This document shows positions 1 through 11,884 of a DNA stretch of 11,884 bases, in pieces. Where the stretch lies: contig BBVC01000031.1 in the NCBI GenBank assembly GCA_001192655.1, positions 1-11,884 on the forward strand, read 5' to 3'. The stretch comes from Caedimonas varicaedens (GTDB taxonomy: Bacteria > Pseudomonadota > Alphaproteobacteria > Caedimonadales > Caedimonadaceae). Every line of letters starts with the position of its first letter. Within the stretch, counting starts at the first letter, position 1. Both the position numbers and the translations under genes were made by a program. The notes beneath the pieces are model-generated. The model saw only the letters and a list, made by a program, of their open reading frames with translations, made no database searches and was not told the origin of the DNA.

Positions 1-400
1 CTCCGGCGCTAACAATATCCACATTAAAGAAATTATCTGTGTAATCTGAACAGCCATAAAGAACCTGATTGGGCATGATGAATTTTGGATTCTTTCCATA
101 AAGCCAATCAATTGTTTCGTTGGGAGCAAGCTTAAAGTCTTTTTGAATGGGATAATCCACAATATCAGGGATATCCGTTACACTTTCATTTTGAGCGATA
201 TAGAGAGAAATTTTGATATCTGATTCTGTTTGATTGCACAAAAGTAAACTATCAAGGATACAAGTATGTTCCTGAGAAAACAGAACGCAAGGCGAAAGAT
301 TCACGTTCCTTACCAGAAATGACAGAAAATTCACAAAAGGCGTTCCTATTGAAGGAGTCCCGCCTTTTGTGCGCCTATTTGAAGTATGTGTTTCCCCCAT
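1..400 (-). CDS. hypothetical protein, truncated by the left window edge; start uncertain
   Basis: The minus-strand frame is open from ATG at 400 (in-frame TGA immediately upstream) to position 1. It is absent from the supplied track because it has no stop in the window. My translation ends ...ISLYIAQNESVTDIPDIVDYPIQKDFKLAPNETIDWLYGKNPKFIMPNQVLYGCSDYTDNFFNVDIVSAG. The 332-371 terminator-like hairpin lies within the first ~25 codons, so the real start may be the in-frame GTG at 304 or TTG at 241. No family recognised. Confidence 0.45.
   Translation of the reverse strand, partial: MGETHTSNRRTKGGTPSIGTPFVNFLSFLVRNVNLSPCVLFSQEHTCILDSLLLCNQTESDIKISLYIAQNESVTDIPDIVDYPIQKDFKLAPNETIDWLYGKNPKFIMPNQVLYGCSDYTDNFFNVDIVSAG
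332..371 (-). terminator. putative rho-independent terminator closing the fibre operon
   Basis: Perfect 11-bp inverted repeat: CACAAAAGGCG (332-342) and CGCCTTTTGTG (361-371), with an 18-nt loop that can form a further 5-bp inner stem. On the minus strand it is followed by AATTTTCTGTCATTTCT. It sits 73 nt downstream of the 73-aa gene stop. Confidence 0.55.
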
Positions 401-443
401 TCAAACCCACTGTCTTTCTAAATTCTGTTGCTTGCAACAGGAA

Positions 444-665
444 TTACTTTGTTCCGAATACAGGAATTTCTTTTTTCAATGCCTGCATGTCCGCCATCAT
501 ATCATCAATAACCTCAGAAAAGGAGGCGCATATCTGTTGGTATTGGGGCGTGATTTCTCCTGAGAAATTGAAAGCTTGCGTGCCGTATTGCTGACAAAAT
601 TGAGAGTTGACATTGAAGTGAGATAGTTCTTTGAGTCCTTGACGATTAATAGCAATGCTTGCCAT
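444..665 (-). CDS. small hypothetical protein (73 aa), last gene of the fibre operon
   Basis: ATG at 665 is preceded by AAGGAG with a 6-nt spacer (AAAAGGAGACACATATG). The protein is soluble-looking and Q-rich, with no TM segment. No family recognised. Confidence 0.7.
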   Translation of the reverse strand: MASIAINRQGLKELSHFNVNSQFCQQYGTQAFNFSGEITPQYQQICASFSEVIDDMMADMQALKKEIPVFGTK

Positions 666-771
666 ATGTGTCTCCTTTTATGAAAAATTAAACAATAGGG
701 ATGAAGTCAACAAATCAATATTTTGTTTGAAATTCCCCTACACTTGAATATACAGACTGCACAACAGAAAT

Positions 772-2688
772 TCAATGAATCTGACGCACTTCTTGCTCTA
801 GAGATACAAGGCGTTGTGTCATTTCCTGAACGGCTAAAATGGTGTAACACAAAAGCGTATTGTAATTGACACCTAAAGAGGGGATATGATCGGGCAATGT
901 GTTTTGAGATGCATCCAGTGGTTTGTATTGATTGGTAGCATTGTCAAAAAGTGTCAGCACGTCTTCGGCAATCACACCCACTTGAAGCTCATTCATTTTT
1001 CTTTGCTTGCGGGCTTTCTTTTTGGGTGAATCAGATTTCAAAATGTCATACTTCAAGCCGTAAGAATAAATATTAAGACGAGTAAGTCTATCTAAATAAT
1101 CTTTATGTTTCTTTTTTCGAACGCTATGCTTGTTCTCTTTAGAACAAGGAACAAATTGTCCAGACCCATTAATGTAGGCAACGTAGCTGGTCATACTGCC
1201 ATTGTCTTCATCGGTAAAGATGAAGCCTAAAGTGTTCATGGGATTGATGAACTGCATGAAATCACCGTTCATGACCAGAGAAGATGTTTGTCCAAGGGCG
1301 TTTGATTCAAGGATCGTAGAATACGAAGAATTATAGACATTGGCTGCCCGTAAGTCCAAATAGTTGCTATAGGGACGAATATAACATTGATATCCGCCTT
1401 CATAAAAAGTTGTTTTGGCACTATTGCTCGCAATATCCATACGTTTTACTGAACCCGTTCCAAACTTTAGAGTAGCTGTATTAGCGGCCCACATATAAGC
1501 TTCGTTCGTGCTGGAATTAAACCCAAACTCTGCGCCATTTGATCCATTATATTGGATGAGAAACCCTGTAGAAATTGCACCTAGATTCGTATTATTTATA
1601 ACGATGTTATGCGAAGAACTATTTGTTGTCACGCGGATGGGGTCACCATCAACATTGGTAAAAGATAAAGGATTTTGCACATTTATTGAGACTTGGTTAT
1701 ACGCCGCCAAATTGTTGGCTTGGAGAGTTCCTGTTGTGGCACTGATCTTGCCAGAAGTTGTCAGGTCAAAGGTTTGAAGTGTCATATTGCTATCAATATT
1801 GAGATGATTGATATAAGGAACACTCCATTGACCGTCTCCGCGCAAAAAATAAGAGGAATTTGAAGGATAGCCATTCAGTCTTGAGATATTGAGCTTTCCT
1901 GTGGTTCCTGTATTGATATTTAGACTGGTGACAACACTGCCATTGCTGGCAGATGTTATACGTCCATAAGCATCCACTGTTGCATTGAGATTGGTATAGC
2001 TACCCGGCAAAACACCCGTGCCAGCTAAAGTAATCGTCCCGCTTGACGTAATTGTGCCACCTCTCAATCCTGTGCCTGCAGTAATACTGGTCACTGTGCC
2101 ACCTGTAGGATTGGACGCATTAATCGGAACCCAAGCTGATCCCGTATACATCTCAACAGTGCTTAGCGTAGAATTTGCTCGCATCATGCCAAAAACAGCC
2201 GTAGATGGTCTTTGTGCCGTTGTACCTATCGGTAAGATCATAGACGCTGTCCCAGGAAAGACAGGATTAGAAGCAAAAATTGTTTGAATGGGAGAATCTG
2301 TGAAACCAGACCCGCCAATATCTCCGCTTAAAGTGATGGGAATAGAAGACCTTGCATCAAAATCAACAGGCACATTAAAACGAAGACGAGAATTTTCTTC
2401 CGAGTAGTTGAAAATAGGCAAGTTCGAGACAGGCTCATACCCAAATCTCTCCAGCATAAAATCTCCAAAAATAGAGCTTGGTTTCGTGACCTGCTTGAAC
2501 CGATAACCGATAAAGGAATGGTTCAAAAAATCATAAGAACTAACTTCGTCCGTCAAACTCGTAGGCATAAACTGCGTCAGAGATTGAAGCGCACCATGAT
2601 TGTTCTCGGGGGAGAAAATCAACTTTTGTGTATCGCCCAATATTTTGAGATCAGGATTTATTCCACTCACGACTATCGTTGTTGCCAT
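772..2688 (-). CDS. tail-fibre protein with C-terminal intramolecular chaperone (Peptidase_S74-like) domain
   Basis: 638-aa ORF with GGAG 4 nt upstream of the ATG (ACGGAGATACATG). N-terminal ILGDTQKLIFSP and NPVFPGTASMILPIGTTAQRPSTAVFGMMR...VEMYTGSAW module shared with the two upstream genes. G/T/S-rich shaft repeats (GGTVTSITAGTGLRGGTITSSGTITLAGTGV, VDAYGRITSASNG, FLRGDGQWSVP) are typical of phage fibres. The last ~120 aa (CSKENKHSV...LNIYSYGLKYD...QVGVIAEDV...LGVNYNTLLCYTILAVQEMTQRLVSLEQEV) fit the endosialidase/tail-fibre chaperone domain pattern. Confidence 0.9.
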   Translation of the reverse strand: MATTIVVSGINPDLKILGDTQKLIFSPENNHGALQSLTQFMPTSLTDEVSSYDFLNHSFIGYRFKQVTKPSSIFGDFMLERFGYEPVSNLPIFNYSEENSRLRFNVPVDFDARSSIPITLSGDIGGSGFTDSPIQTIFASNPVFPGTASMILPIGTTAQRPSTAVFGMMRANSTLSTVEMYTGSAWVPINASNPTGGTVTSITAGTGLRGGTITSSGTITLAGTGVLPGSYTNLNATVDAYGRITSASNGSVVTSLNINTGTTGKLNISRLNGYPSNSSYFLRGDGQWSVPYINHLNIDSNMTLQTFDLTTSGKISATTGTLQANNLAAYNQVSINVQNPLSFTNVDGDPIRVTTNSSSHNIVINNTNLGAISTGFLIQYNGSNGAEFGFNSSTNEAYMWAANTATLKFGTGSVKRMDIASNSAKTTFYEGGYQCYIRPYSNYLDLRAANVYNSSYSTILESNALGQTSSLVMNGDFMQFINPMNTLGFIFTDEDNGSMTSYVAYINGSGQFVPCSKENKHSVRKKKHKDYLDRLTRLNIYSYGLKYDILKSDSPKKKARKQRKMNELQVGVIAEDVLTLFDNATNQYKPLDASQNTLPDHIPSLGVNYNTLLCYTILAVQEMTQRLVSLEQEVRQIH

Positions 2689-2831
2689 TGTATCTCCGTA
2701 TCATCGTTTAGCGCATCCCATACAATTTTAAAGACCCTTTCATCAATCAATGCCACATCAGGAGGCATGGAAAACGGCGTAATCCAACTCTCTCCGTCAA
2801 AAACTTCTAGATTTTTTACAGGATCACTCAC
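2673..2831 (-). CDS. candidate unannotated small ORF (52 aa, GTG start), or relic of a fibre module
   Basis: It fills the only sizeable gap (2689-2833) in the fibre operon. GTG at 2831 lies 2 nt after the 215-aa stop, and TAG at 2673-2675 overlaps the 638-aa start by 16 nt. Hand translation: VSDPVKNLEVFDGESWITPFSMPPDVALIDERVFKIVWDALNDDTEIQWQQR. No SD; an internal ATG at 2768 would give only 31 aa. It is too short to appear in the supplied track. Confidence 0.25.
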   Translation of the reverse strand: MSDPVKNLEVFDGESWITPFSMPPDVALIDERVFKIVWDALNDDTEIQWQQR

Positions 2832-2833
2832 TT

Positions 2834-3481
2834 TTAGACAAACTTGAAAGTGAGGTCGCAGGATATTGAACCACTCAAATCAGCAGGAGAAGCCCATCGC
2901 AAGGTGAGACCCAACTCGCTGAAATCAAGCTCAGAAACGGCAGATAAGTCCATAACATTTATTGTTTGTTCGCGACTGTAACGAGAAAGTCTTGCCTTTC
3001 CTTGGCTGTTTTCAGTAAAAGTTGACAGTGTCCATTCTGTGCCAATAAACTTTGTATAGTCAATTTGAGTATCACTTGTTCCTGTTCCAATAGGACTTAG
3101 GATACCTGGAAGCGTTGGTGTGCTGAGAATTGTATTATGATCTGGAACACTAAAGCGAATCATCCCGACTTTAGGCTCTGTTGGGCGCTGAGATTGAACA
3201 CCAACAGGAACAGTAAGGAATCCTGCACTATCAATCACCGTGTCGCCAGGGACAACTGGATTTTGAGAAATGGAAATCACAGGCTTTTGAGTAGCAGGAT
3301 CAATACTTATCACAATCTGGCGATCAGTTCCTAAAATGTCTTGGTTGAGAAGAAACCGAAGCCATTGAGTACCATCATGAAACTCAACACCCGCTGAAGA
3401 TGGATCAACGCTGTTAACCGGTGCCAACGCAGTGAATGGAACTTCATTTTTTTCATAAGTAAAATCAATATTTTTAGGCAT
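2834..3481 (-). CDS. fibre-associated protein (215 aa) carrying the short form of the shared fibre module
   Basis: ATG at 3481 has AGGA about 9 nt upstream and lies 17 nt after the 813-aa stop. Residues 51-110 (GTDRQIVISIDPATQKPVISISQNPVVPGDT...VPVGVQSQRPTEPKVGMIRF) parallel the last 60 aa of the upstream 813-aa protein. The C-terminal ~105 aa are of unknown fold. Confidence 0.8.
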   Translation of the reverse strand: MPKNIDFTYEKNEVPFTALAPVNSVDPSSAGVEFHDGTQWLRFLLNQDILGTDRQIVISIDPATQKPVISISQNPVVPGDTVIDSAGFLTVPVGVQSQRPTEPKVGMIRFSVPDHNTILSTPTLPGILSPIGTGTSDTQIDYTKFIGTEWTLSTFTENSQGKARLSRYSREQTINVMDLSAVSELDFSELGLTLRWASPADLSGSISCDLTFKFV

Positions 3482-3498
3482 TTTTGCTATCCTGAATG

Positions 3499-5940
3499 TT
3501 AGTGAGTTGTGTAACGAATCATTCCGACCTTGGGCTCTAAAATTGCGTCTCGTTCGGCTTGACTTCCTCCTGGAATCATAACATATTTTGTCCCTGGGAT
3601 CGTAGGATTTTCAGCTAAAGAAATCTTTTTTTGTGTTGAATCGTCAAAATCGTCTTCAATCACGATTTGATGGTCTGTTCCAACGCTTTTAACGCCTATT
3701 TTTTTTGACCCTAATGCGTCACTCCGAAAATAAGCGTCCTCAGATTGAGAATAGAAATACACATGCTTATCTTGGAAAGAAGGAATGCTATGTGTTTCAG
3801 CAAGAGCAATCACCGCCTTATCTCCTTGTCCTGTATTCTTGATATGAAGTGAATATTGCGGATTATTGTGACCGATAGCCACGTCAGGATAATAAACGTC
3901 ATTATCGTGATCCGCTCCACCAAGAACGATAGAATTGGAAGACTCAACCTTGGCATACGCGCCAATAGCAATGGCATTGACAAGCGTTCCTGAATCTTGC
4001 CCGCCCGTGTCCGCTTGGTATCCCAAGCCAATACAAAAATCTCCTCCCTTTCCCACCAAAGGCACATTTGATCCTGTGACCGAAGAAAGCGCACTGTCTC
4101 CAATGGCAATATTTCCTCTTCCTGTGCTATTGCTTCCCAAAGCATCAACACCGATGGCAAGATTCGGATGTTGTGTGAGCCACGAATGAGAAGTCGTAAA
4201 ATTTAAAGAAGCTCTGTCTCCTATAGCAATGTGCCTGGATTCAGCCGTCAAAGGATTGGTCGAGTCTGCATTCAGGTAAAAAAGTGTGCGATAGCCAATG
4301 GCAATATTGGAACTGCCACTTCTGGTCATTCTCGCGGCAGAATATCCAATGAAAACATTAGGCGATCCCAGTGGCTTTGCCGCAAAAGGCGCGTAATTAG
4401 CTCCAGCATAAGCACCGATGGCGACAGAGCCATCTGTAACTGTTTGAAATCTTTCAAGAGAATTCCCTTGTAAAGCGCAATAGCCAATCGCCACAGAACC
4501 GTCAATATATCCAGACAAAGGAATCCCAAGGGTATCAATGTTTGCAGGATACTGAAGGGCATTTGCGCCAATCGCAACGTTATGCTCCCCTTTGAACATG
4601 TTCTCAAGTGTACTTTGTCCAATCGCTACATGATTCCCACCAGGAGAAAGCATGGACCAAATTCCAGGACCAACACCAGATCGAGAAAGAGCATTTTGTC
4701 CTATGGCAACAGAGTTTTTGACGAAACCACAATATTGCAAAGCTTGGTGTCCCAAGCTCACATTGTAATCTCCTGACGAAAATTCTTGAGACGAAAAACC
4801 AACCGCCACATTGTAACGCGCCGCACTCACTCCCACAGCGTTACCGCAATTCTTCAAAGCGTTATAACCAACCGCCACATTCTCAATAGGATTAGCATGC
4901 GAATCAGATTCATTTGTAGGTGAGGAAAGCACGTTGAGGCCAATAGCAACATTTCGTGAGGCGCTACCTCCATCCGCAAACGTTCCACACTGTGTGCCGA
5001 TATAAAAATTGTCACGATCGCCAAATGTGTCGGTGATATAGGTCGGCTTTGCTTCTCCATACATCTTTTTCCAGCCGTCATTATATCCGCCCTCAAAGTA
5101 ATTCGTGTCGCTATTGTAGCGAAACATGCCAACGACAGGCTGTTCAGGCGTAGGATCGGGTCTTTGATCGTCTCCTCCCATAGGAATCGTGATGGAAATA
5201 TTGCCGGGGAAAACCGCATTATCCTGAAACGTGGTCTCAATCTTTTTAATCTTTTTGTCAGGATGTTCAGGATCAGGAATTACTTCAATTACCTTGCCTG
5301 AAACCGCTCCTATGATACTTTGACCAATGTTTTCAAAAATCACCACTTCCGCTATTTCCAAGTCTGCAAGCGTCAGGAAATCAATGCCAGGAATGGCAAT
5401 CTCTATCTTGCCAAAAGGCAGATTTTCAGGATGAAGAGGATCAGGTAATTGAAGAGAAAGTTTTAGAATGTTGGGCGTCAGGGCAATATTATAAAGCTCG
5501 TTCAAAGTTTGAGCATGTGGCAACTTCTTATCGCCATATTGACCTAAAGCCACGAATGGCTCACCGCCATAAGCATAATCCTCATTAGGTTGAGCATAGG
5601 CAAAGGTTGTGTAGTGTTGATCATCAGGCACGTCAGGATTGGCAACAGCAAGTTTCGTTAAAACGGGATAAGGTAATGCTGGAGGCGTTGCGGGCGTTGG
5701 AACAACAGTATTCAAATCAAAAGGCATCGGTCTTGAAAGAATGGTTTGATCTTCCTGAACCTGTGGAATGCCTAGCCAAATATGAGAACTCTGTAAATCT
5801 GGCAAATTATCTTGTAAAATAGTGGGTGAAAAAAAGGAATGGTTCTGATCGTCACCCAGAAGAACATGACTAAATGGAATAATGAGCTTCCCGCTCACAG
5901 GTGACATAAAAGGATCGGTATAGCCTGAAAGATAGTTCAT
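3499..5940 (-). CDS. large tail-fibre/adhesin-like protein with YadA-head-like beta-roll repeats
   Basis: 813-aa ORF. Long module at the N-terminus (VLLGDDQNHSFFSP at aa 26-39; NAVFPGNISITIPMGGDDQRPDPTPEQPVVGMFRYNSDTNYFEGGYNDGW at aa 241-290). About 16 irregularly spaced N-[VI]-A-[IV]-G-x-x-[AS]-L repeats over aa 329-690, resembling trimeric-autotransporter head (Hep_Hag) repeats. A second, short module forms the extreme C-terminus (GTDHQIVIEDD...NPTIPGTKYVMIPGGSQAERDAILEPKVGMIRYTTH-stop). No signal peptide or membrane anchor. Confidence 0.9.
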   Translation of the reverse strand: MNYLSGYTDPFMSPVSGKLIIPFSHVLLGDDQNHSFFSPTILQDNLPDLQSSHIWLGIPQVQEDQTILSRPMPFDLNTVVPTPATPPALPYPVLTKLAVANPDVPDDQHYTTFAYAQPNEDYAYGGEPFVALGQYGDKKLPHAQTLNELYNIALTPNILKLSLQLPDPLHPENLPFGKIEIAIPGIDFLTLADLEIAEVVIFENIGQSIIGAVSGKVIEVIPDPEHPDKKIKKIETTFQDNAVFPGNISITIPMGGDDQRPDPTPEQPVVGMFRYNSDTNYFEGGYNDGWKKMYGEAKPTYITDTFGDRDNFYIGTQCGTFADGGSASRNVAIGLNVLSSPTNESDSHANPIENVAVGYNALKNCGNAVGVSAARYNVAVGFSSQEFSSGDYNVSLGHQALQYCGFVKNSVAIGQNALSRSGVGPGIWSMLSPGGNHVAIGQSTLENMFKGEHNVAIGANALQYPANIDTLGIPLSGYIDGSVAIGYCALQGNSLERFQTVTDGSVAIGAYAGANYAPFAAKPLGSPNVFIGYSAARMTRSGSSNIAIGYRTLFYLNADSTNPLTAESRHIAIGDRASLNFTTSHSWLTQHPNLAIGVDALGSNSTGRGNIAIGDSALSSVTGSNVPLVGKGGDFCIGLGYQADTGGQDSGTLVNAIAIGAYAKVESSNSIVLGGADHDNDVYYPDVAIGHNNPQYSLHIKNTGQGDKAVIALAETHSIPSFQDKHVYFYSQSEDAYFRSDALGSKKIGVKSVGTDHQIVIEDDFDDSTQKKISLAENPTIPGTKYVMIPGGSQAERDAILEPKVGMIRYTTH

Positions 5941-5971
5941 GTATAAGCCAGTTTCTCAAAAATAATAAGCA

Positions 5972-6000
5972 ATTCTAACAGTTTTTATGAGAATTGGGAA
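5972..6000 (-). promoter_or_regulatory. candidate sigma70-type promoter for the fibre operon
   Basis: The minus strand reads TTCCCA (6000-5995), a 17-nt spacer, then TAGAAT (5977-5972), about 30 nt upstream of the 813-aa ATG. Motif match only. Confidence 0.25.
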
Positions 6001-6352
6001 TTGATTGACAGCACTTGCGATCGTAATAAGCAAGTGTTGGCTATTGCCAAATAAAATGTAGCATCAATCGCGTCATAAATGCACGGGAAATGAAAGAAAT
6101 GATTGACATGGTGGTAGAGTAGCCAAGACAAAGTTATACACTGATTCTCGCGCGATTGTGTTGCGGTGTTTGAAATATCTTGTTATAAAGGAAAAATGAA
6201 TAGGTGACATAGATTTCAACTACGTCACCCACAGAATGGTTGTTTGGGAACTTACATTCAGTTTGTATCTTCACAGTAGCAAACTTTCATATCTTTATCA
6301 AGTTCCCTTAACTCTATCAAGCGCATTTTTGCGCTCGAAGGAACTTGTCGAC

Positions 6353-6487
6353 ATGAAAAAGAAAATAGAAGAAGCGGTAAAAGAATATATTTACCGCCGA
6401 TTTATTACTCTTCGTAATGGGAAACGCCTTGATGCTCACGACTTCGGTTTGCGAGCATTTAAGTTTCCTGTAAAAATAGAACAGTAA
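6353..6487 (+). CDS. small hypothetical protein (44 aa); the track ORF 6236-6487 probably starts here
   Basis: The internal ATG at 6353 is preceded by GAAGGAAC. Product: MKKKIEEAVKEYIYRRFITLRNGKRLDAHDFGLRAFKFPVKIEQ. The upstream 39 codons of the 83-aa version look non-protein-like and span a GCGCA-TTTT-TGCGC hairpin. The gene converges on the 6497-6526 terminator. Confidence 0.35.
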   Translation: MKKKIEEAVKEYIYRRFITLRNGKRLDAHDFGLRAFKFPVKIEQ

Positions 6488-6496
6488 ATACAAATG

Positions 6497-6526
6497 ATAG
6501 AGGAGTGGCGTCATGCGCTCCTCTAT
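6497..6526. terminator. putative bidirectional terminator between convergent genes
   Basis: 9-bp perfect stem ATAGAGGAG (6497-6505) / CTCCTCTAT (6518-6526) with a 12-nt loop. It lies 10 nt after the plus-strand stop (6487) and 13 nt after the minus-strand stop (6539). T-tails are weak on both strands. Confidence 0.5.
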
Positions 6527-6538
6527 TATCCATCCAAT

Positions 6539-6745
6539 CTAAGAGCCTTGCATTGGTTCACTAATGCTCGTGATGGAGGACGTATGTAGCTTAGGAAGAT
6601 CAGCACTTACATGCACGCCTGTTATTTCACCACCTTGGATGACAGGCGTTGCAACCAATCCTAACGAAAGTAATCCATTGTAAAGCCTTTCATTTCTGTC
6701 GGCAGATGACATATGTTGTGGTTGGAATTTTTCTGCAATGTTCAT
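6539..6745 (-). CDS. hypothetical protein (68 aa)
   Basis: ATG at 6745 is preceded by AAAGGAAC about 9 nt upstream. It ends just before the terminator hairpin. No family recognised. Confidence 0.5.
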   Translation of the reverse strand: MNIAEKFQPQHMSSADRNERLYNGLLSLGLVATPVIQGGEITGVHVSADLPKLHTSSITSISEPMQGS

Positions 6746-6813
6746 TTTATTTCTGTTCCTTTGTTTGGTTGTTCTGCAACATCATACACAAAAAAAATCA
6801 CGATAAAAAACTA

Positions 6814-7017
6814 TTAATGCGCATCCTGTCCAATCCTCGCTCCACACTCACAATGCTTACCATGTTCCCGCTCATGTTCAAATTCTGTTGCAAACTCTTC
6901 AATAGCTTCTTCAGCAAGATGCTCCGCTTCTTTCACAGCAAACTTTCCAAGTTCATACGTGCAGGAGGAAAGAGCAAGAACAGATAAAATGATGAGTTTA
7001 TTCATAGATGGAGTCAT
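6814..7017 (-). CDS. small lipoprotein (67 aa) with an acidic, His/Cys-containing mature part
   Basis: The N-terminus M(TPSM)NKLIILSVLALSS-C is a textbook lipoprotein signal with lipobox LSSC. Mature part: CTYELGKFAVKEAEHLAEEAIEEFATEFEHEREHGKHCECGARIGQDAH. The start could be ATG 7017 or ATG 7005. No clear SD. Confidence 0.6.
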   Translation of the reverse strand: MTPSMNKLIILSVLALSSCTYELGKFAVKEAEHLAEEAIEEFATEFEHEREHGKHCECGARIGQDAH

Positions 7018-7093
7018 TTAGTAAATTTAAGAAATCATAGCATTTTTAGAGAATGTGGGGAATTATGATTATAATTGTCATAAGCCAATGATG

Positions 7094-7378
7094 TTATTGG
7101 TCTTTATTGTAAGCAATAATTTTATCCGTCAGCACTTCAAGGTAATCTATATGACAGATTCTCCCCATAAAAAGAAGTAATATCATTTCTATAATCAATA
7201 AAGAAAGAGAAGACCAGTCTTTTAAATGGGGAAAGATTAATAAATCAATAAAAAACAATGATAATAAAAAAAAGAAAAACAGAGTTTGGAGAAATTTAAT
7301 CCACACTCCATAGAGCAACTCCTTCAATGCGCTGCTATAATTTCTTAACGTAGACTCTTTTCTAAATTTGTTCATCAA
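7094..7378 (-). CDS. small two-TM membrane protein; candidate toxin partner (PanT-like) of the upstream Panacea gene
   Basis: Two hydrophobic helices (WIKFLQTLFFFFLLSLFFIDLLIF and LSLLIIEMILLLFMGRI) with polar, charged ends. The track start at 7378 is actually TTG; the first ATG is at 7375. It overlaps the 3' end of the 153-aa gene by 14-17 nt, suggesting translational coupling. Confidence 0.6.
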   Translation of the reverse strand: MMNKFRKESTLRNYSSALKELLYGVWIKFLQTLFFFFLLSLFFIDLLIFPHLKDWSSLSLLIIEMILLLFMGRICHIDYLEVLTDKIIAYNKDQ

Positions 7379-7823
7379 TAAAAAAATCTTTATATTCTTG
7401 AAGTATATCGCAATTGTTTATTTCAGCATGATATAAAGATCGGCGATAAGTCTTTTCCCAAGCACCATCCGCAAGATGTGTAAGAGCCACAAGATTATTT
7501 GTGCTGTAAGGGCGATATTTTCTGTAAACTTTTTCAATCAAGATAGACTCTTGCCCAGCGATAGGATCATCATTCGAAATTGTTTTAGTCCCATAAAATA
7601 CATTTAAAACAGGACGATTGGAAAAAATATTCGCCTTTTGATAAACCTCGGGATTTACAGGCCCATATTGCCAAGCTTCAAACGGCTCTTCTATTAAATA
7701 ATCATCGTTTTTACCGAGATGAAACATATGACAAAGATACATGAGTTTTTGCAAGCGTAAATTGCTTATGCTCCAATAACTTAATGAGCATAATTTCTTC
7801 GCCGCTTGAAATGCTGTAATCAT
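7362..7823 (-). CDS. Panacea (DUF4065) domain protein, PanA/SocA/GepA-type antitoxin
   Basis: SNLRLQKLMYLCHMFHLGKNDDYLIEEPFEAWQYGPVNPEVY matches the DUF4065 signature (LQKLLY...G.pL..e.FEAW.yGPV.p.vY). Its size (153 aa) and its position upstream of, and overlapping, a small gene fit the PanAT arrangement. Confidence 0.85.
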   Translation of the reverse strand: MITAFQAAKKLCSLSYWSISNLRLQKLMYLCHMFHLGKNDDYLIEEPFEAWQYGPVNPEVYQKANIFSNRPVLNVFYGTKTISNDDPIAGQESILIEKVYRKYRPYSTNNLVALTHLADGAWEKTYRRSLYHAEINNCDILQEYKDFFIDEQI

Positions 7824-8130
7824 CTTATCTACCTATCATTTACTCTTTCCCTTCCTTCCTCTATCCTTGCGCCACTTCTTCTCAAAGTCAATAGACACAG
7901 AAAGAGAATCATTTGTTCTTACCATTCTTGCCATTAATTTTATTTTTGCTTGTATCGTGATTAACCATTTGAGTTCTTACTGCTTTTATTTCTGTTTTAA
8001 CTGAATCAATCTTGCGTTCTGCGGGCAAATTCTCTGGCTCTGTCCCTGTATTTTTAATAACCATCTTGACATATGTTGGCAAATGGCGAAATAGGCGCAG
8101 ATCACAAGGCCTCTATTTTGAGCGGAATCG

Positions 8131-8237
8131 AATTTTACACAAATTTGGCACAAGCAACATCACTCTTTTTATCACAGAATCTAGGAATGCTGTACTCTTT
8201 TATGGGGTAAAATTTTACACAAATTTTACACAATTTG
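8131..8237 (+). repeat. direct repeats (TTTTACACAA core) in the integrase upstream region; possible operator or arm-type sites
   Basis: The exact 16-mer AATTTTACACAAATTT occurs at 8131-8146 and 8211-8226. A third core copy, TTTTACACAA at 8224-8233, lies in tandem 11 bp after the second. All end about 20 bp before the int SD (TAAGGAGG, 8252-8259). Confidence 0.6.
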
Positions 8238-8262
8238 CATAAAAGTCACAGTAAGGAGGAAA

Positions 8263-9438
8263 ATGATGCAACGAGTAATTTTGACACAATCTATGATCGA
8301 AAAAGCGAAGCCAAAGGCGCGTATTTTTTCTTTGAAAGATGCGAAAGTCCCAGGGCTTGAGTTTGTTACCAATCCACGAGGAACACAGTCTTGGTTTGTG
8401 AGAGCGTTTAAACAAAAAATACTTCTCGGAAGATATCCGTTTATGAGTCTAGAAGATGCCCGAAAAATGGCTCTTCAGGTATATGTTGATCTTCAAAAGG
8501 GCGTTGTTCCTCTGGTTAAGAAAAAAGAAGAAAAAAACAAAAATATTACAGTTAATCAACTGGTTGAAGAGTTTTTCCAATTTAGATCATCTGGCACTCA
8601 TGCCTTAGAAGAATCGACAATGAACGTCTATAAGAAAGCTTGGGTTGCCTTAGGTTCTGAAACCATTGGAAGCTTTCAAATCTCAGAATTAACAGACGTT
8701 ACGATTAATCAAGTTTGTCTGCCATTAATGGCAAAATATTCTCGAGTGAAGTGCTTACAGAATCTCATACATGTAGCGTTCCAATATGGCTTCAAAATGG
8801 GCTACCCTGTTGCCGTTTTGAATTCAGATAATTGGCTGAAAGGAAAGGGCGAAGGCAAAGAAAGATACTTTTATTCTGCTGACGTTCAGAAACTTGAAAC
8901 GCAAACTGATTTTGGGCTTCAAAAGGATTCCACTGATTCGTCAATTTTACATATTCTTATGTACACAGGTTGTCGAGTTACTGAGATTTTAGAGCTTCAA
9001 TGGAATGATATTTCTTTAGAAAACGGCTATTTCAAGCTTCGTAAAACAAAGACTAAAAAGCAACGAGTTGTTCCTATTTCTGGTGCGTTGCGTGAAATTT
9101 TTCTGAGATTACAAACCACTTCATCTACGGGATACGTTTTCAAATCCCTGAGAGATGCCAATGCTCCCTATAATTATTTTACGCTGATTCATTTTTGGCG
9201 TCTCATTATGAAGCAGGCTGGTTTTAATACAGATGGTGAAAAATTGACCATCCACAGCTTACGCCATACGTTTGTGACGGTTGGTAATCGGATCAAGGTT
9301 TCTCCCTTTACGTTGCAAGATTTAGTCGGTCATTCCCGTGGCCGCTCTGTCACGGCTGGATATATTCATCCCAATCTAGCGGAGCTTGCAGAAGCCCAGC
9401 AATCCATCATTTCAGCCATTCAGAGCGGGAGCTACTAA
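8263..9438 (+). CDS. int: tyrosine recombinase / phage integrase, P4-type with DUF4102 arm-binding N-terminus
   Basis: A perfect SD (TAAGGAGG) precedes ATGATG. N-terminus LKDAKVPGLEFVTNPRGTQSWFVRAF...LGRYPFMSLEDARKMA fits the DUF4102 pattern. Catalytic set present: R in YTGCRVTE, K in KLRKTKTKKQRVVPI, HSLRHT (H-x-x-R), GH in LVGHS, Y in TAGYIH. Confidence 0.95.
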   Translation: MMQRVILTQSMIEKAKPKARIFSLKDAKVPGLEFVTNPRGTQSWFVRAFKQKILLGRYPFMSLEDARKMALQVYVDLQKGVVPLVKKKEEKNKNITVNQLVEEFFQFRSSGTHALEESTMNVYKKAWVALGSETIGSFQISELTDVTINQVCLPLMAKYSRVKCLQNLIHVAFQYGFKMGYPVAVLNSDNWLKGKGEGKERYFYSADVQKLETQTDFGLQKDSTDSSILHILMYTGCRVTEILELQWNDISLENGYFKLRKTKTKKQRVVPISGALREIFLRLQTTSSTGYVFKSLRDANAPYNYFTLIHFWRLIMKQAGFNTDGEKLTIHSLRHTFVTVGNRIKVSPFTLQDLVGHSRGRSVTAGYIHPNLAELAEAQQSIISAIQSGSY

Positions 9439-11873
9439 TGATTCTGCCTGAAATCCGCTGGAGCTATTTTGAACACATTAGAGATAATAAGCCTACGCCT
9501 TATAAGACGGACTGGGCTTTGTTCTCCAGCAAATTCAGTCAGCATCAAACGGCTGTAGAAAAGCATACAGTGCCTGCTTTTTCCATGAACATCTATAAAG
9601 AGAAGACCACACGGAGCAATGAATCGGTTCATAGCATGTCAGGTGTTGTCCTTGATTTTGATGGGAAGAGCAAGGAAGCGGTGACACTTAAGAAAGCGGC
9701 TTCTGCCTTAAATGGTTATAGCTATGTGGGATACACGACTTTCTCTCATTCTGAAGAAGCTCCTCGATACCGCCTTGTGATTCCTTTTTATGAAGCTATA
9801 TCACCTGAAGATTATCGTGGTCGTTTCTTTCCTGTGTTGAAGGAATACCTGAAGCAAAAGCTTGGTTCTAACTTGGAAGAGCTGGACGAAGGATGCCCAA
9901 TTCCTTCCAAGATTTACGATATTCCTTGTGTTCGGGAAGGTATGACACCTGAATCGATTGTTAAAACAGGTGGCTTTTTACATCCTGAATTATTTATCAC
10001 GAAATACCATGTACAGCAGGCACTTCTTAACGTTTCTGCGGATTGTGGGTATCACGACTGGATTCAAGTTGGGATGGCGATTCATGCGGGATTGGGCGTT
10101 TCTGAAGGGTTCGAGCTATGGAACGAATGGTCGTCCACAGGAAGCAAATATGCAGGAGCGCGTGACCTCGCCCAATACTGGAAAAACTTCAAGGAAGACA
10201 AGGGTATTACGCTGGGAACGCTGTTCCATAAGGCAGATTATCACCCTGGGGAAACTTTAATTTCTCTTCATTCCGTAGTGACGGGCGTTGATTCCTCTCT
10301 GTCCGTTTCCGATCAAATCTTGCAGTTTTTAAAGGAAGTGGGTCAGCCTTGTCTTCCAAGAGAAATTGCTTTTGGGATTGGGAAGAAAACAGAGAAAGAG
10401 CAAAGCAACGTTCGGGTGGTTATTAAAAGGCTTTATGATCGCGGTGATCTTGCTCGTAATAGCACCCAGAACACTTATGAACTTTCTTTCACTAAGCGTT
10501 CAGAAGACCAAAAAACAGGTCAGCGTTACATCCAAGACGATCAAAAATCGGATAATGAGGGTGTAACGTTACATGAAAATAGGGGTGTAACACCTGTAAC
10601 GATACATGATTTTGACTCAAAAAATAGTCAAATGGGTGTAACGGAAGGCAAAACTGGTGTAACGGCAAAGCTCAATATGTGGTCAAATTTCCGCGAATAT
10701 GGAAAATTTAATATTTTAGATGTGTCTCATTTCCCGATTCTCGCAAGTATTTATTCTTTTTTTACTTCCAACTGCAAACCTTTCCTTCCCCACCTTGCGT
10801 TAGGTGCCACGATTAATTGTGCAGGTCATATGATGCGTCCGATTGGAATATGTCGCGGAAAGAGGACAAACTTTTACACACTTCTTATATGTCGCACAGG
10901 TGGTGGAAAAGAAACAGTCGCGCGAAACATTTTTAAATATATGGACTACCAAAAGCTGGGAGCTTACACGGCATCTAACTTTGTGAGTGTTCAGGGGTTT
11001 GAAAAGAAGATCACCCAAACCAATCCTCTTCTTATGATAACTGACGAAGCCGCGCAATGGTTCGGAGCTTTTAGCGGTCGGAACACGAGTGAACATTTTA
11101 AGAAGCTCAAGACAGCGTTGAAGCTCGTGTACTCGGGGGATCGGTATACGTGCCAGAATTCCAAGAGCGAAAATGGGGCTGTGATTGAAGAGCCTTTCTT
11201 AAATTCCTGTTTTTTAGGAACGCCTGCGATATTTCAGAATATTCGGGAAGACGATATTACGGATGGTCTCTTGGGTCGGATGCTGGTGTTCCATGATGTG
11301 AACAATAGCTGGGGTATTAGTGCGTACGATTTATCCAAAGCAGAAAGCTTTGTTCCTCCTGAACTCCTGAATATTAAAGCTCCGTCTAGTCTTTTTGAGC
11401 TTTATGAAAAGAACAATCGGTTTGACTTGCTTCACTTTTACGAAGGGCTTGTGAACAGTATGCCCCTTCCTGATACGTTGCCTGACAATTATGTGAAATT
11501 CTTGTTGGCGCGTATTCCTGAGAATTTCAACAAGCTTCTTCTTTTGACCATGAACGAGAAGGGAGAAGTGACGGACACAGGCGCACAGTGGGCGGCTTCT
11601 GTAGCGATTTATTGCTATGATACAGCTTGCGCCTTGCTGGAAGAGCATTTTGGTAAAACGTTCTTCTCGGACGCGCACCAGAAAATGTTTGATCTTATCA
11701 AATCAGCCAAAACCATTTCAAAAAGTCAGCTTCGCGCTTCTCATGCCATGAAGCGGTTAGACAAGCGTGTCTTTGAGGAAGCCTTGGACGCTCTGGCAGA
11801 AATGGGTGTCGTTGAGGTTATTCAACAGAATCCACCGAGTGGAGGTCGTCCAACAATCACCATTAATTTATAG
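9438..11873 (+). CDS. replicase: primase-like N-domain + PriCT-2 + winged-helix + DUF3987 (helicase-like) protein
   Basis: The ATG overlaps the int stop (TAATG), with GGGAG upstream. AEP-like motifs (VVLDFDG, TTFSHS, RYRLVIPF). PriCT-2-like DWIQVGMAIHAGLGVSEGFELWNEWSSTGSKY...YWKNF. Probable wHTH (ILQFLKEVGQPCLPREIAFGIGK...VIKRLYDRGDL). DUF3987-like C-half (TLLICRTGGGKETVARNIF, LLMITDEAAQWFG) and a terminal wHTH-like tail (MGVVEVIQQNPPSGGRPTITINL). Confidence 0.9.
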   Translation: MILPEIRWSYFEHIRDNKPTPYKTDWALFSSKFSQHQTAVEKHTVPAFSMNIYKEKTTRSNESVHSMSGVVLDFDGKSKEAVTLKKAASALNGYSYVGYTTFSHSEEAPRYRLVIPFYEAISPEDYRGRFFPVLKEYLKQKLGSNLEELDEGCPIPSKIYDIPCVREGMTPESIVKTGGFLHPELFITKYHVQQALLNVSADCGYHDWIQVGMAIHAGLGVSEGFELWNEWSSTGSKYAGARDLAQYWKNFKEDKGITLGTLFHKADYHPGETLISLHSVVTGVDSSLSVSDQILQFLKEVGQPCLPREIAFGIGKKTEKEQSNVRVVIKRLYDRGDLARNSTQNTYELSFTKRSEDQKTGQRYIQDDQKSDNEGVTLHENRGVTPVTIHDFDSKNSQMGVTEGKTGVTAKLNMWSNFREYGKFNILDVSHFPILASIYSFFTSNCKPFLPHLALGATINCAGHMMRPIGICRGKRTNFYTLLICRTGGGKETVARNIFKYMDYQKLGAYTASNFVSVQGFEKKITQTNPLLMITDEAAQWFGAFSGRNTSEHFKKLKTALKLVYSGDRYTCQNSKSENGAVIEEPFLNSCFLGTPAIFQNIREDDITDGLLGRMLVFHDVNNSWGISAYDLSKAESFVPPELLNIKAPSSLFELYEKNNRFDLLHFYEGLVNSMPLPDTLPDNYVKFLLARIPENFNKLLLLTMNEKGEVTDTGAQWAASVAIYCYDTACALLEEHFGKTFFSDAHQKMFDLIKSAKTISKSQLRASHAMKRLDKRVFEEALDALAEMGVVEVIQQNPPSGGRPTITINL
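10524..10665 (+). repeat. iteron cluster, putative origin of replication embedded in the replicase linker
   Basis: TGTAAC cores in direct orientation start at 10562, 10586, 10595, 10637 and 10658, mostly as GGTGTAACG. Inverted copies lie at 10524-10530 (CGTTACA) and 10568-10573, the latter making TGTAACGTTACA (10562-10573) a perfect palindrome. An AT-rich 7-bp inverted repeat TTTGACT/AGTCAAA (10611-10617 / 10626-10632) sits between the iteron groups. Confidence 0.55.
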
Positions 11874-11884
11874 CTAACAACATA

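Follow-up and report, generated by a model that had tools for sequence, protein, structure and literature searches.

Caedimonas varicaedens is the kappa "killer" endosymbiont of Paramecium biaurelia (PMC4645214), and one contig of its draft genome, BBVC01000031.1, raises the question of how a set of phage tail-fibre genes comes to share a short piece of DNA with a tyrosine integrase and a primase-helicase while genes for the body of a virion are missing from it. The window, i.e., the whole stretch of DNA that was analysed, is this entire contig of 11,884 bp. An earlier note on the same DNA had taken the pairing of integrase and replicase as the signature of a P4-like satellite or phage-inducible chromosomal island (PICI), and had suggested that such an island carries receptor-binding fibres of its own. 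The comparisons described here point elsewhere. On balance, the contig is probably a closed 11,865-bp phage-derived mini-element of C. varicaedens, and this element, without head, tail-body, terminase or lysis genes, would most likely be a deletion derivative of a temperate phage.

The evidence for closure lies at the two ends of the contig. Related loci and contigs used for comparison are referred to by L-numbers (L001, L003, L006, L011, L110 and so on), while P0002 and P0003 are fibre homologues encoded in 43–49-kb phage contigs. At the right end, the primase terminates early (...TITINL*) compared with its relatives on L006 and L134, without their conserved ...EKGE tail and without the early genes downstream, and nucleotide homology to these relatives stops at about position 11867. 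At the left end, the 133-codon gene matches its family as far as ...D-I-V-S and then diverges, the conserved FVSYRELTEL tail being absent. This C-terminal tail is present in all 14 of the 14 family members examined (consensus FVSYRELTEL; at least the core [FIVQKL]-[VI]-[SN]-[YC]). In a six-frame translation of the window the corresponding signature, [FIVL]V[SN]Y[RK], has a single match, the stretch VVSYK at the right end of the contig; 0.3 matches are expected per 11.9 kb, and a match lies within the last 20 nt by chance with a probability of about 5e-4. The same ends carry a direct repeat, GCTAACAA[T/C]AT, with 10 of 12 bases matching and copies that lie 7 nt and 1 nt from the contig ends. 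Its exact 8-mer, GCTAACAA, occurs within the contig at positions 8 and 11873 only, while an exact 8-mer is shared by 0.37% of random 20-mer pairs used as a control. A tRNA/tmRNA search and Rfam at E ≤ 1 returned no hit in the window, nor a partial tRNA marking an attachment site (att).

Joining the ends at the repeat extends the left-end gene to ...NVDIVSYKLMV...* and raises its score against the family hidden Markov model by 3.5 bits. At the nucleotide level the joined ends read TAT AAA TTA A, which matches TAT (CGG) AAA TTA A in L003, and a circle or tandem array would carry the sequence ...ACCATTAATTTATAGCTAACAA[Y]ATCCACATTAAAG..., with the junction core ...ATTAATTTATAGCTAACAAYATCCACATT.... 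VVSYK probably supplies the 3' end that the gene interrupted at position 2 lacks, and the contig ends are probably two halves of one gene. If so, the contig represents a closed 11,865-bp unit, which we infer to be a circle, a tandem array or a unit interrupted or flanked at a single junction. On joining, the truncated primase and 133-aa (amino acid) genes meet antisense at a palindromic ATTAAT with no terminator, and, provided that the ends are indeed joined, this junction resembles the scar of a deletion more than a gene boundary shaped by evolution. The hallmarks of a deletion-derived mini-replicon, a retained replication module and a junction that truncates formerly separated genes, would then both be present.

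In the favoured explanation, both modules of the contig would derive from temperate podophages infecting Holosporales. The first would be a late-type receptor-binding block, comprising a 68-aa leader, fibre proteins of 813, 215 and 638 aa and the 73- and 133-aa genes, and the second an integration and replication module, in which a tyrosine integrase is coupled to a primase-helicase behind three 16-nt repeats. Between them would lie AT-rich cargo, composed of a Panacea-type antitoxin with a small hydrophobic open reading frame (ORF) and a lipoprotein-like ORF. A deletion would have stripped a ca. 40-kb ancestor of its early, lysis, head and tail-body genes and left its scar at ATTAAT. The element would persist through Int, primase-driven replication and the toxin-antitoxin (TA) pair, and its fibres would enter particles only if a related podophage supplied heads and tails, a use proposed because the N-terminal part of the 813-aa protein is conserved with complete phages.

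Several observations weigh against this explanation. A simple overlap leaves the seven bases CTCCGGC at the left end and the last base at the right unaccounted for, the terminal repeat contains 2 mismatches in 12, the ends were compared post hoc, once the data had been seen, and closure is deduced from 12–18 nt per end. No inverted-repeat relation hinting at the terminus of an insertion sequence (IS) was seen in the 1–7 nt outside the repeat. Arm-type repeats were searched for near the contig ends and none were found, the best arm-site candidates lying upstream of int; without such repeats at the junction, the terminal repeat is less likely to be an att site. The signature could also stem from a second, paralogous 133-like gene located rightward of the primase, which is conceivable because the family occurs both beside the portal and after the fibres. 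On the other side of the balance, no Caedimonas portal stood among the best 120 of 204 portal homologues, and a genome scan for one was negative, made with two peptide patterns only and in a collection in which the presence of this assembly is unconfirmed. The absence of a Caedimonas portal fits an element without morphogenesis genes, as weak evidence given those limits and the discarding of contigs with odd coverage. Two other accounts of the ends were set aside: a plain circle with overlapping ends, ruled against by the 7 unmatched nt at the left, and an IS reading, for want of an inverted-repeat relation outside the terminal repeat.

These same points bear on the possibility that the contig is just an arbitrary piece of a temperate podophage or prophage of full length, which may be riddled with ISs, with the other ca. 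30 kb on other or filtered contigs and the similarity of the ends due to chance or to a paralogous 133-like gene. Such a fragment is a tentative alternative to be taken seriously, given that the closest relatives of every module lie in complete 40–49-kb phage genomes and that the assembly is fragmented and transposase-rich. BBVC01 was assembled from 454 reads with Newbler into 142 contigs with ca. 100 transposase-family hits, and contigs with unusual GC (guanine plus cytosine) content or coverage were dropped from it (PMC4645214). Kappa symbionts have also long been known to carry phage-like particles, according to the passages of later papers that cite Preer et al., 1974 (PMC3583457; PMC11909080). 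The imperfect overlap of the ends and the double placement of 73- and 133-like genes in related phages, both beside the portal and after the fibres, are equally at home with a fragment. What a fragment accommodates poorly is that, compared with all relatives, each of the two terminal genes is cut short within 20 nt of its end of the contig, that the signature missing from the left-end gene stands exactly at the right end and on the correct strand, that an exact 8-nt repeat is unique to the two ends, and that no portal labelled Caedimonas was found in the searches described above.

Table 1. Features of the window, with coordinates counted from its first base
Feature	Position	Strand	Basis or remark
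Terminal direct repeat, left copy GCTAACAATAT	8-18		inside 3' end of 133-codon gene
133-codon gene	2-400	-	runs off left contig end; 29-34% identity to small phage family
73-aa gene	444-665	-	65% identity to L112, 53% to L003, 34% to L006, 31% to L011
Distal tail fibre, 638 aa	772-2688	-	C-terminal Peptidase_S74 and PHROG matches
Fibre-cassette protein, 215 aa	2834-3481	-	75% identity to L001 216-aa protein
Proximal fibre/spike protein, 813 aa	3499-5940	-	phrog_4636 tail spike, E 2e-24
Non-coding spacer, 412 bp	5941-6352		upstream of fibre block; hairpin and promoter-like site inside
44-aa ORF	6353-6487	+	strong hairpin 3' of ORF
68-aa gene, first of fibre-containing block	6539-6745	-	45% identity to 83/92-aa gene at same position in L003/L004/L005
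67-aa ORF, lipoprotein-type signal (…LALSSC)	6814-7017	-	sequence; no family match
94-aa hydrophobic ORF, putative toxin	7094-7378	-	position only; no family match
Panacea/SocA-type antitoxin, 153 aa	7362-7823	-	PF13274 E 1.8e-17; phrog_1281 E 2e-30
Three 16-nt repeats, AATTTTACACAA(A)TTT	8131-8244		directly upstream of int
Tyrosine integrase with arm-DNA-binding domain	8263-9438	+	PF00589 5.8e-25; PF13356 2.7e-10
Primase-helicase, 811 aa, PriCT_2 and P-loop domain	9438-11873	+	Pfam and PHROG matches; TAATG overlap with int
VVSYK, C-terminal signature of 133-codon gene family	11867-11881	-	antisense to primase stop codon
Terminal direct repeat, right copy GCTAACAACAT	11873-11883		1 nt from right end

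The gene content of the contig agrees in large part with the observations made earlier (Table 1). The three fibre genes on one strand, with a 412-bp non-coding stretch upstream, are real, as attested by tail-spike PHROG and Peptidase_S74 matches, and so is the divergent integrase 2.3 kb away, which overlaps the primase-helicase at TAATG in a translationally coupled arrangement. The limits that had been drawn around the fibre unit require revision. Rather than ending at position 444, it continues through the 73-aa and 133-codon genes on the same strand, and the strong terminator described downstream corresponds to the sole hairpin there (423–442, after the 73-aa gene), which is weak at −6.4 kcal/mol and z −1.2. 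Upstream, the supposedly convergent terminator is a strong hairpin within the spacer (6200–6232, minus strand, −18.5 kcal/mol, z −5.3, then a U-run) that is oriented like the fibre genes. The spacer contains, in addition, a promoter-like site at 6000–5972, and the hairpin 3' of the 44-aa ORF (6494–6529) has −21 kcal/mol and z −5.5. A folding scan found no hairpin after the 638-aa gene, and the numbers of promoter-like and terminator-like sites in the window are not above shuffled expectation. In relatives, an ORF of 72–73 aa overlaps the start of the large fibre gene (L001 9783–10004, L003 9786–10004); there is no trace of it at 5941–6235 of the window, where non-coding DNA and the strong terminator hairpin are found instead.

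The fibre block has a well-defined set of relatives. Positions 2–6781 of the window are syntenic with metagenomic contigs of 43–49 kb (L001–L005) that carry the 68-aa leader, the three-gene cassette and the 73- and 133-aa genes, at 68–75% identity, and also encode phage lysozyme, YqaJ exonuclease, Cro-like, P63C, SU10-type adaptor and large virion proteins. Scanning IMG/VR with a portal profile led to viral genomes of 40–59 kb with a homologous cassette (L110, L111, L112, L130, L104), in which the 73-aa gene comes directly after the cassette, then a P22-type portal, a 133-like gene and a scaffold-position gene, and after these the major-capsid-position (ca. 400–415 aa), adaptor-position (212 aa) and nozzle-position (ca. 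715 aa) genes, the scaffold, capsid, adaptor and nozzle roles being assigned by synteny with L011 and L014, where a SU10_adaptor Pfam match occurs. Within the cassette, homologues of the 215-aa protein with 243–259 aa hold the same position in L003, L110 and L112. The 73-aa gene is a constant companion on the 3' side of the cassette and lies directly upstream of the portal in complete phages, while relatives of the 133-codon gene follow the portal in L006, L011, L110 and L112 and follow the fibres in L001 and L003. Upstream, the fibre block adjoins a different neighbour in each of L003, L004 and the window, and it therefore behaves as an exchangeable unit, in accordance with the earlier note.

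The portal that separates the 73- and 133-aa genes in L006, L011, L110 and L112 is absent from that place in the window. In many related complete phages the two genes flank it (L006 700–2791, L110 9772–12252, L112 7635–10068), while in the window, L001 and L003 they are adjacent without an intervening portal, the window having a gap of 43 bp with the weak hairpin. Twice, a single viral contig gave two portal loci, L108 and L110 on IMGVR_UViG_3300042333_000684 (44.8 kb) and L109 and L130 on IMGVR_UViG_3300034050_001176 (59.4 kb), which suggests a concatemeric assembly or two related phage genomes in one contig. A tRNA-Asn (GTT) is located in the leftward early and lysis region of the 43–49-kb contigs (L003 20963–21037, L004 18194–18268).

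The 813-aa protein consists of a conserved N-terminal part and a central NxAxG repeat region, and its full-length identity is 73% to P0002 and 68% to P0003. Its N-terminal 240 residues are 52–75% identical to fibres in complete phages, so that docking on the tail of a related podophage is conceivable. The NxAxG region has more than 480 relatives in IMG/VR and is ca. 28% identical to annotated tail fibres of Pelagibacter, Roseobacter and Prochlorococcus phages. An AlphaFold (AF2) model of this protein has a mean pLDDT (predicted local distance difference test) of 58.6, with values mostly of 60–94, apart from a few lower blocks, for residues ca. 310–690 only, i.e., the central repeats; Foldseek of the model against the PDB gave no match below E 4, and searching the fibre and primase sequences against the PDB gave nothing reliable. 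The 638-aa protein has a PG...QRP...GMxR motif and a Gly-rich shaft and ends in a Peptidase_S74 intramolecular chaperone (Pfam, E 1e-4, 22.9 bits vs. a cutoff of 22). It shows partial homology to the fibres of 661, 1066, 503 and 744 aa in L003, L001, L110 and L112, respectively. Residues 50–111 of the 215-aa protein, in its first half, resemble the C-terminus of the 813-aa protein. Common to all three is a motif of ca. 30 residues (NPxxPG...P.G...QRP...GMxR) in four copies, at residues 245–275 and 782–810 of the 813-aa protein, 78–110 of the 215-aa protein and 145–171 of the 638-aa protein. It may be a sign of joints between modules or of an attachment element that the proteins have in common. 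The motif also occurs in the fibre proteins of related phages, one copy being located at the extreme C-terminus of the first protein of the cassette, and the PHROGs that carry it are annotated "unknown function".

The second module has its closest relatives in phages rather than in satellites. The nearest primase (71% identity) is found on L006, where it is preceded in the same tight order by an integrase of 50% identity and followed by early genes (AAA_24, DUF669 and GapR-type). Past the other end of the L006 integrase there are a resolvase, a large terminase (ca. 4.4 kb away) and a P22-type portal (ca. 6.3 kb away). This portal is 93% identical to the portal on the 40.5-kb phage contig L011. 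Beyond its portal, L011 encodes a SU10_adaptor-type gene and a 715-aa gene in the nozzle position, and its slot for integrase and primase is taken up by different replication genes, with the same 72-aa gene after them. Another close primase (70%), on L134, is followed by small, early genes on the same strand, a 40-kb IMG/VR genome (L015 and L104) holds integrase, PriCT_2 primase, portal and fibre homologue together, and a more distant relative (29%) is found in phage genomes of 40–43 kb. Because the closest pairs sit among terminase, portal and early genes, the integrase and primase form a swappable early phage module and do not, as the earlier note had argued, mark a P4- or PICI-type satellite as opposed to a phage; no satellite hallmark genes accompany them. 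It is an ordinary exchangeable early module of a podophage group of Holosporales.

Prophages of this group were found in metagenome-assembled genomes (MAGs) of Ca. Finniella inopinata and Ca. Odyssella, and the nearest GenBank phage match of the group's portal has 26% identity (Megaira phage MAnkyphage). In the Ca. Odyssella MAG the integrase beside the terminase and portal of prophage L097 (563–1822, minus strand) is split into two ORFs of 282 and 129 aa, so that this may be a frameshifted, decaying prophage. The group, with its P22-type portal, SU10-type adaptor and IMG/VR genomes of 40–45 kb, shares with the window the order of fibre cassette, 73-aa and 133-aa genes as well as the arrangement of integrase and primase. 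Its genomes differ in holding terminase, portal, scaffold, capsid, adaptor, nozzle and lysis genes, where the window has none: Pfam, PHROG and NCBIfam scans found no capsid, portal, terminase, tube or sheath gene anywhere in the window, and Pfam and PHROG scans likewise no adaptor, nozzle or lysis gene. The statement that no virion genes lie near the two modules thus stands for the window and says nothing of the flanks. Since the window is the whole contig and the assembly contains no flanks, an absence of virion genes beside the modules is not readable from the contig alone. That absence is all that favours the suggestion, made in the earlier note as an alternative, that the fibres are used by a tailocin or contractile injection system whose genes lie elsewhere. 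The relatives of the cassette are without exception located in podophage genomes beside portal, capsid, adaptor and nozzle genes, and no sheath, tube or baseplate homologue was found in the window or in the related loci examined, which leaves this suggestion with a negligible probability.

The 2.3 kb that separates the two modules is occupied by genes, namely the conserved 68-aa gene, the 67-aa lipoprotein-like ORF and the Panacea antitoxin with the 94-aa ORF. The stretch 6751–7850 is AT-rich (GC 0.34). The Panacea-domain protein scores 79 bits against NF047745 (NCBIfam SocA), below the cutoff of 190 bits; its gene overlaps the 94-aa hydrophobic ORF by 14–17 nt, and the two likely form a TA pair, the role of toxin being assigned from position only. 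PADLOC gave no defence-system match for the ORFs of the window. Related phages also carry cargo, between virion and fibre blocks or beside int (L001 4284–7447, L003 6026–8193, L007 7737–9077), which includes outer-membrane beta-barrel, TraT-like and DUF5334 proteins and a major facilitator superfamily (MFS) transporter and resembles in position the TA and lipoprotein cargo of the window. Directly upstream of int, the 16-nt repeat can be written AATTTTACACAAATTT, with two of its three copies in tandem over the likely promoter. L006 has a related TTTCTACACAAATTC (TACACAAATT) at the equivalent site upstream of its int (about 8700–8810). The three repeats could be candidate operator, arm-type or iteron sites, and of the candidate origin of replication proposed earlier for this module there remain, at most, these repeats.

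The cargo, the AT-rich stretch and the repeats invite the reading that two separately bounded elements adjoin here, a prophage end with fibres and cargo beside an integrase-primase island, with an att site between 5941 and 8262. The cargo genes and the stretch of low GC do separate the modules, three repeats do precede int, and a recombination hot spot marks the left edge of the fibre block, as seen from its different neighbours in L003, L004 and the window. Nevertheless such a pair of elements is very improbable. No tRNA or partial tRNA, no Rfam match and no direct repeat flanking the integrase-primase module was found, the L006 pair has phage genes on both sides while the corresponding slot of L011 holds other replication genes, which makes the pair an exchangeable phage module and not an insertion, and the linkage of the ends ties both modules into one unit.

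If the favoured closed element is accepted, it could, as a sub-case, be a functional satellite, that is, an integrase-primase replicon induced and packaged by a helper podophage, whose own fibres retarget the helper's virions. The idea of a small integrase-replicase element that carries fibres without virion-body genes thereby survives in part from the earlier note, the end linkage suggesting a closed unit, although the argument from a satellite signature was mistaken. Such satellites are discrete small elements of about 7–18 kb with defined ends, and with its probable 11.9 kb the closed unit would be similar in size to P4, which is about 11.6 kb. Int, primase-helicase and a putative TA pair are present, all large ORFs of the window, those of the fibres included, are full length compared with their homologues, the fibre block has its own terminator-insulated spacer, docking on the tail of a complete phage is conceivable through the N-terminal 240 residues of the 813-aa protein, and the 73- and 133-aa genes are related to genes that flank portals. 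With P4-like and PICI satellites the unit would also share the tyrosine integrase, the primase-helicase and the lack of head and tail-body genes. Unlike these satellites, the window has no capsid-size, terminase-small-subunit, interference (Ppi/Sid/Psu-like) or AlpA-type genes according to Pfam, PHROGs, NCBIfam and PADLOC, and no cos or pac site was identified in it. Its closest integrase-primase homologues (70–71% for the primase) are borne by complete phages, no helper was detected in the assembly by the limited portal searches, and no related small element was seen among the metagenomic relatives. The closing junction, moreover, truncates two conserved genes antisense without a terminator and looks accidental rather than evolved. 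We know of no P4-like or PICI satellite that carries a three-gene fibre cassette. A working satellite is thus unlikely, and it is as a conjecture of rather low probability that we mention a "fibre-donating" form, in which a three-protein receptor-binding set would redirect which cells helper virions, and the element packaged in them, enter.

Two further systems offer points of comparison for the mini-element. Capsid-forming PICIs (cf-PICIs; bioRxiv 10.1101/2025.02.11.637232) are likewise small elements that provide one component of the virion and take the others from elsewhere, host range depending on the tails or fibres that the particle receives, as is proposed for the window; they are also its mirror image, making capsids and connectors and borrowing tails, whereas the window holds receptor-binding genes only. 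Lambda-dv-type mini-replicons and defective prophages are alike in keeping a replication and integration module, losing the morphogenesis genes and having a junction that truncates two genes at a short microhomology. They are unlike the window in that the latter would also retain an intact fibre block and a TA pair, its autonomous replication and its origin by deletion being deduced.

A whole-window megablast against GenBank phages, PLSDB plasmids and Escherichia coli genomes gave no match, an exact-protein look-up of four window proteins and P0001 returned no record, and single-protein scans of IMG/VR found nothing. Within its own species, the 813-aa protein is 100% identical to "hypothetical protein Cva_00851 [Caedimonas varicaedens]", and the primase corresponds to Cva_00858. 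With the phage-like particles of kappa the window shares the host species complex, as tailed-phage genes, at the level of sequence, in a symbiont that produces R bodies; it differs in that no link to R bodies, reb genes or observed capsids was found in the contig.

Whether or not the contig is closed, the comparisons identify an uncultured group of ca. 40-kb podophages of Holosporales symbionts (Finniella, Odyssella and relatives), whose fibre and replication modules are exchangeable and which has no close relative in culture; should the contig be no more than a prophage fragment, it is an ordinary new member of this group. It is also a first sequence-level handle on tailed-phage genes in C. 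varicaedens, a host in which, since the 1970s, phage-like particles have been connected with R bodies and the killer trait, with no genome to match them. If the unit is closed, it would be a small integrative replicon with receptor-binding proteins as its sole structural genes, a set not described for known satellites, and a fibre-donating satellite, if true, would be the mirror image of the capsid-forming PICIs. A closed unit would, in either case, show how a temperate phage shrinks to a helper-dependent element.

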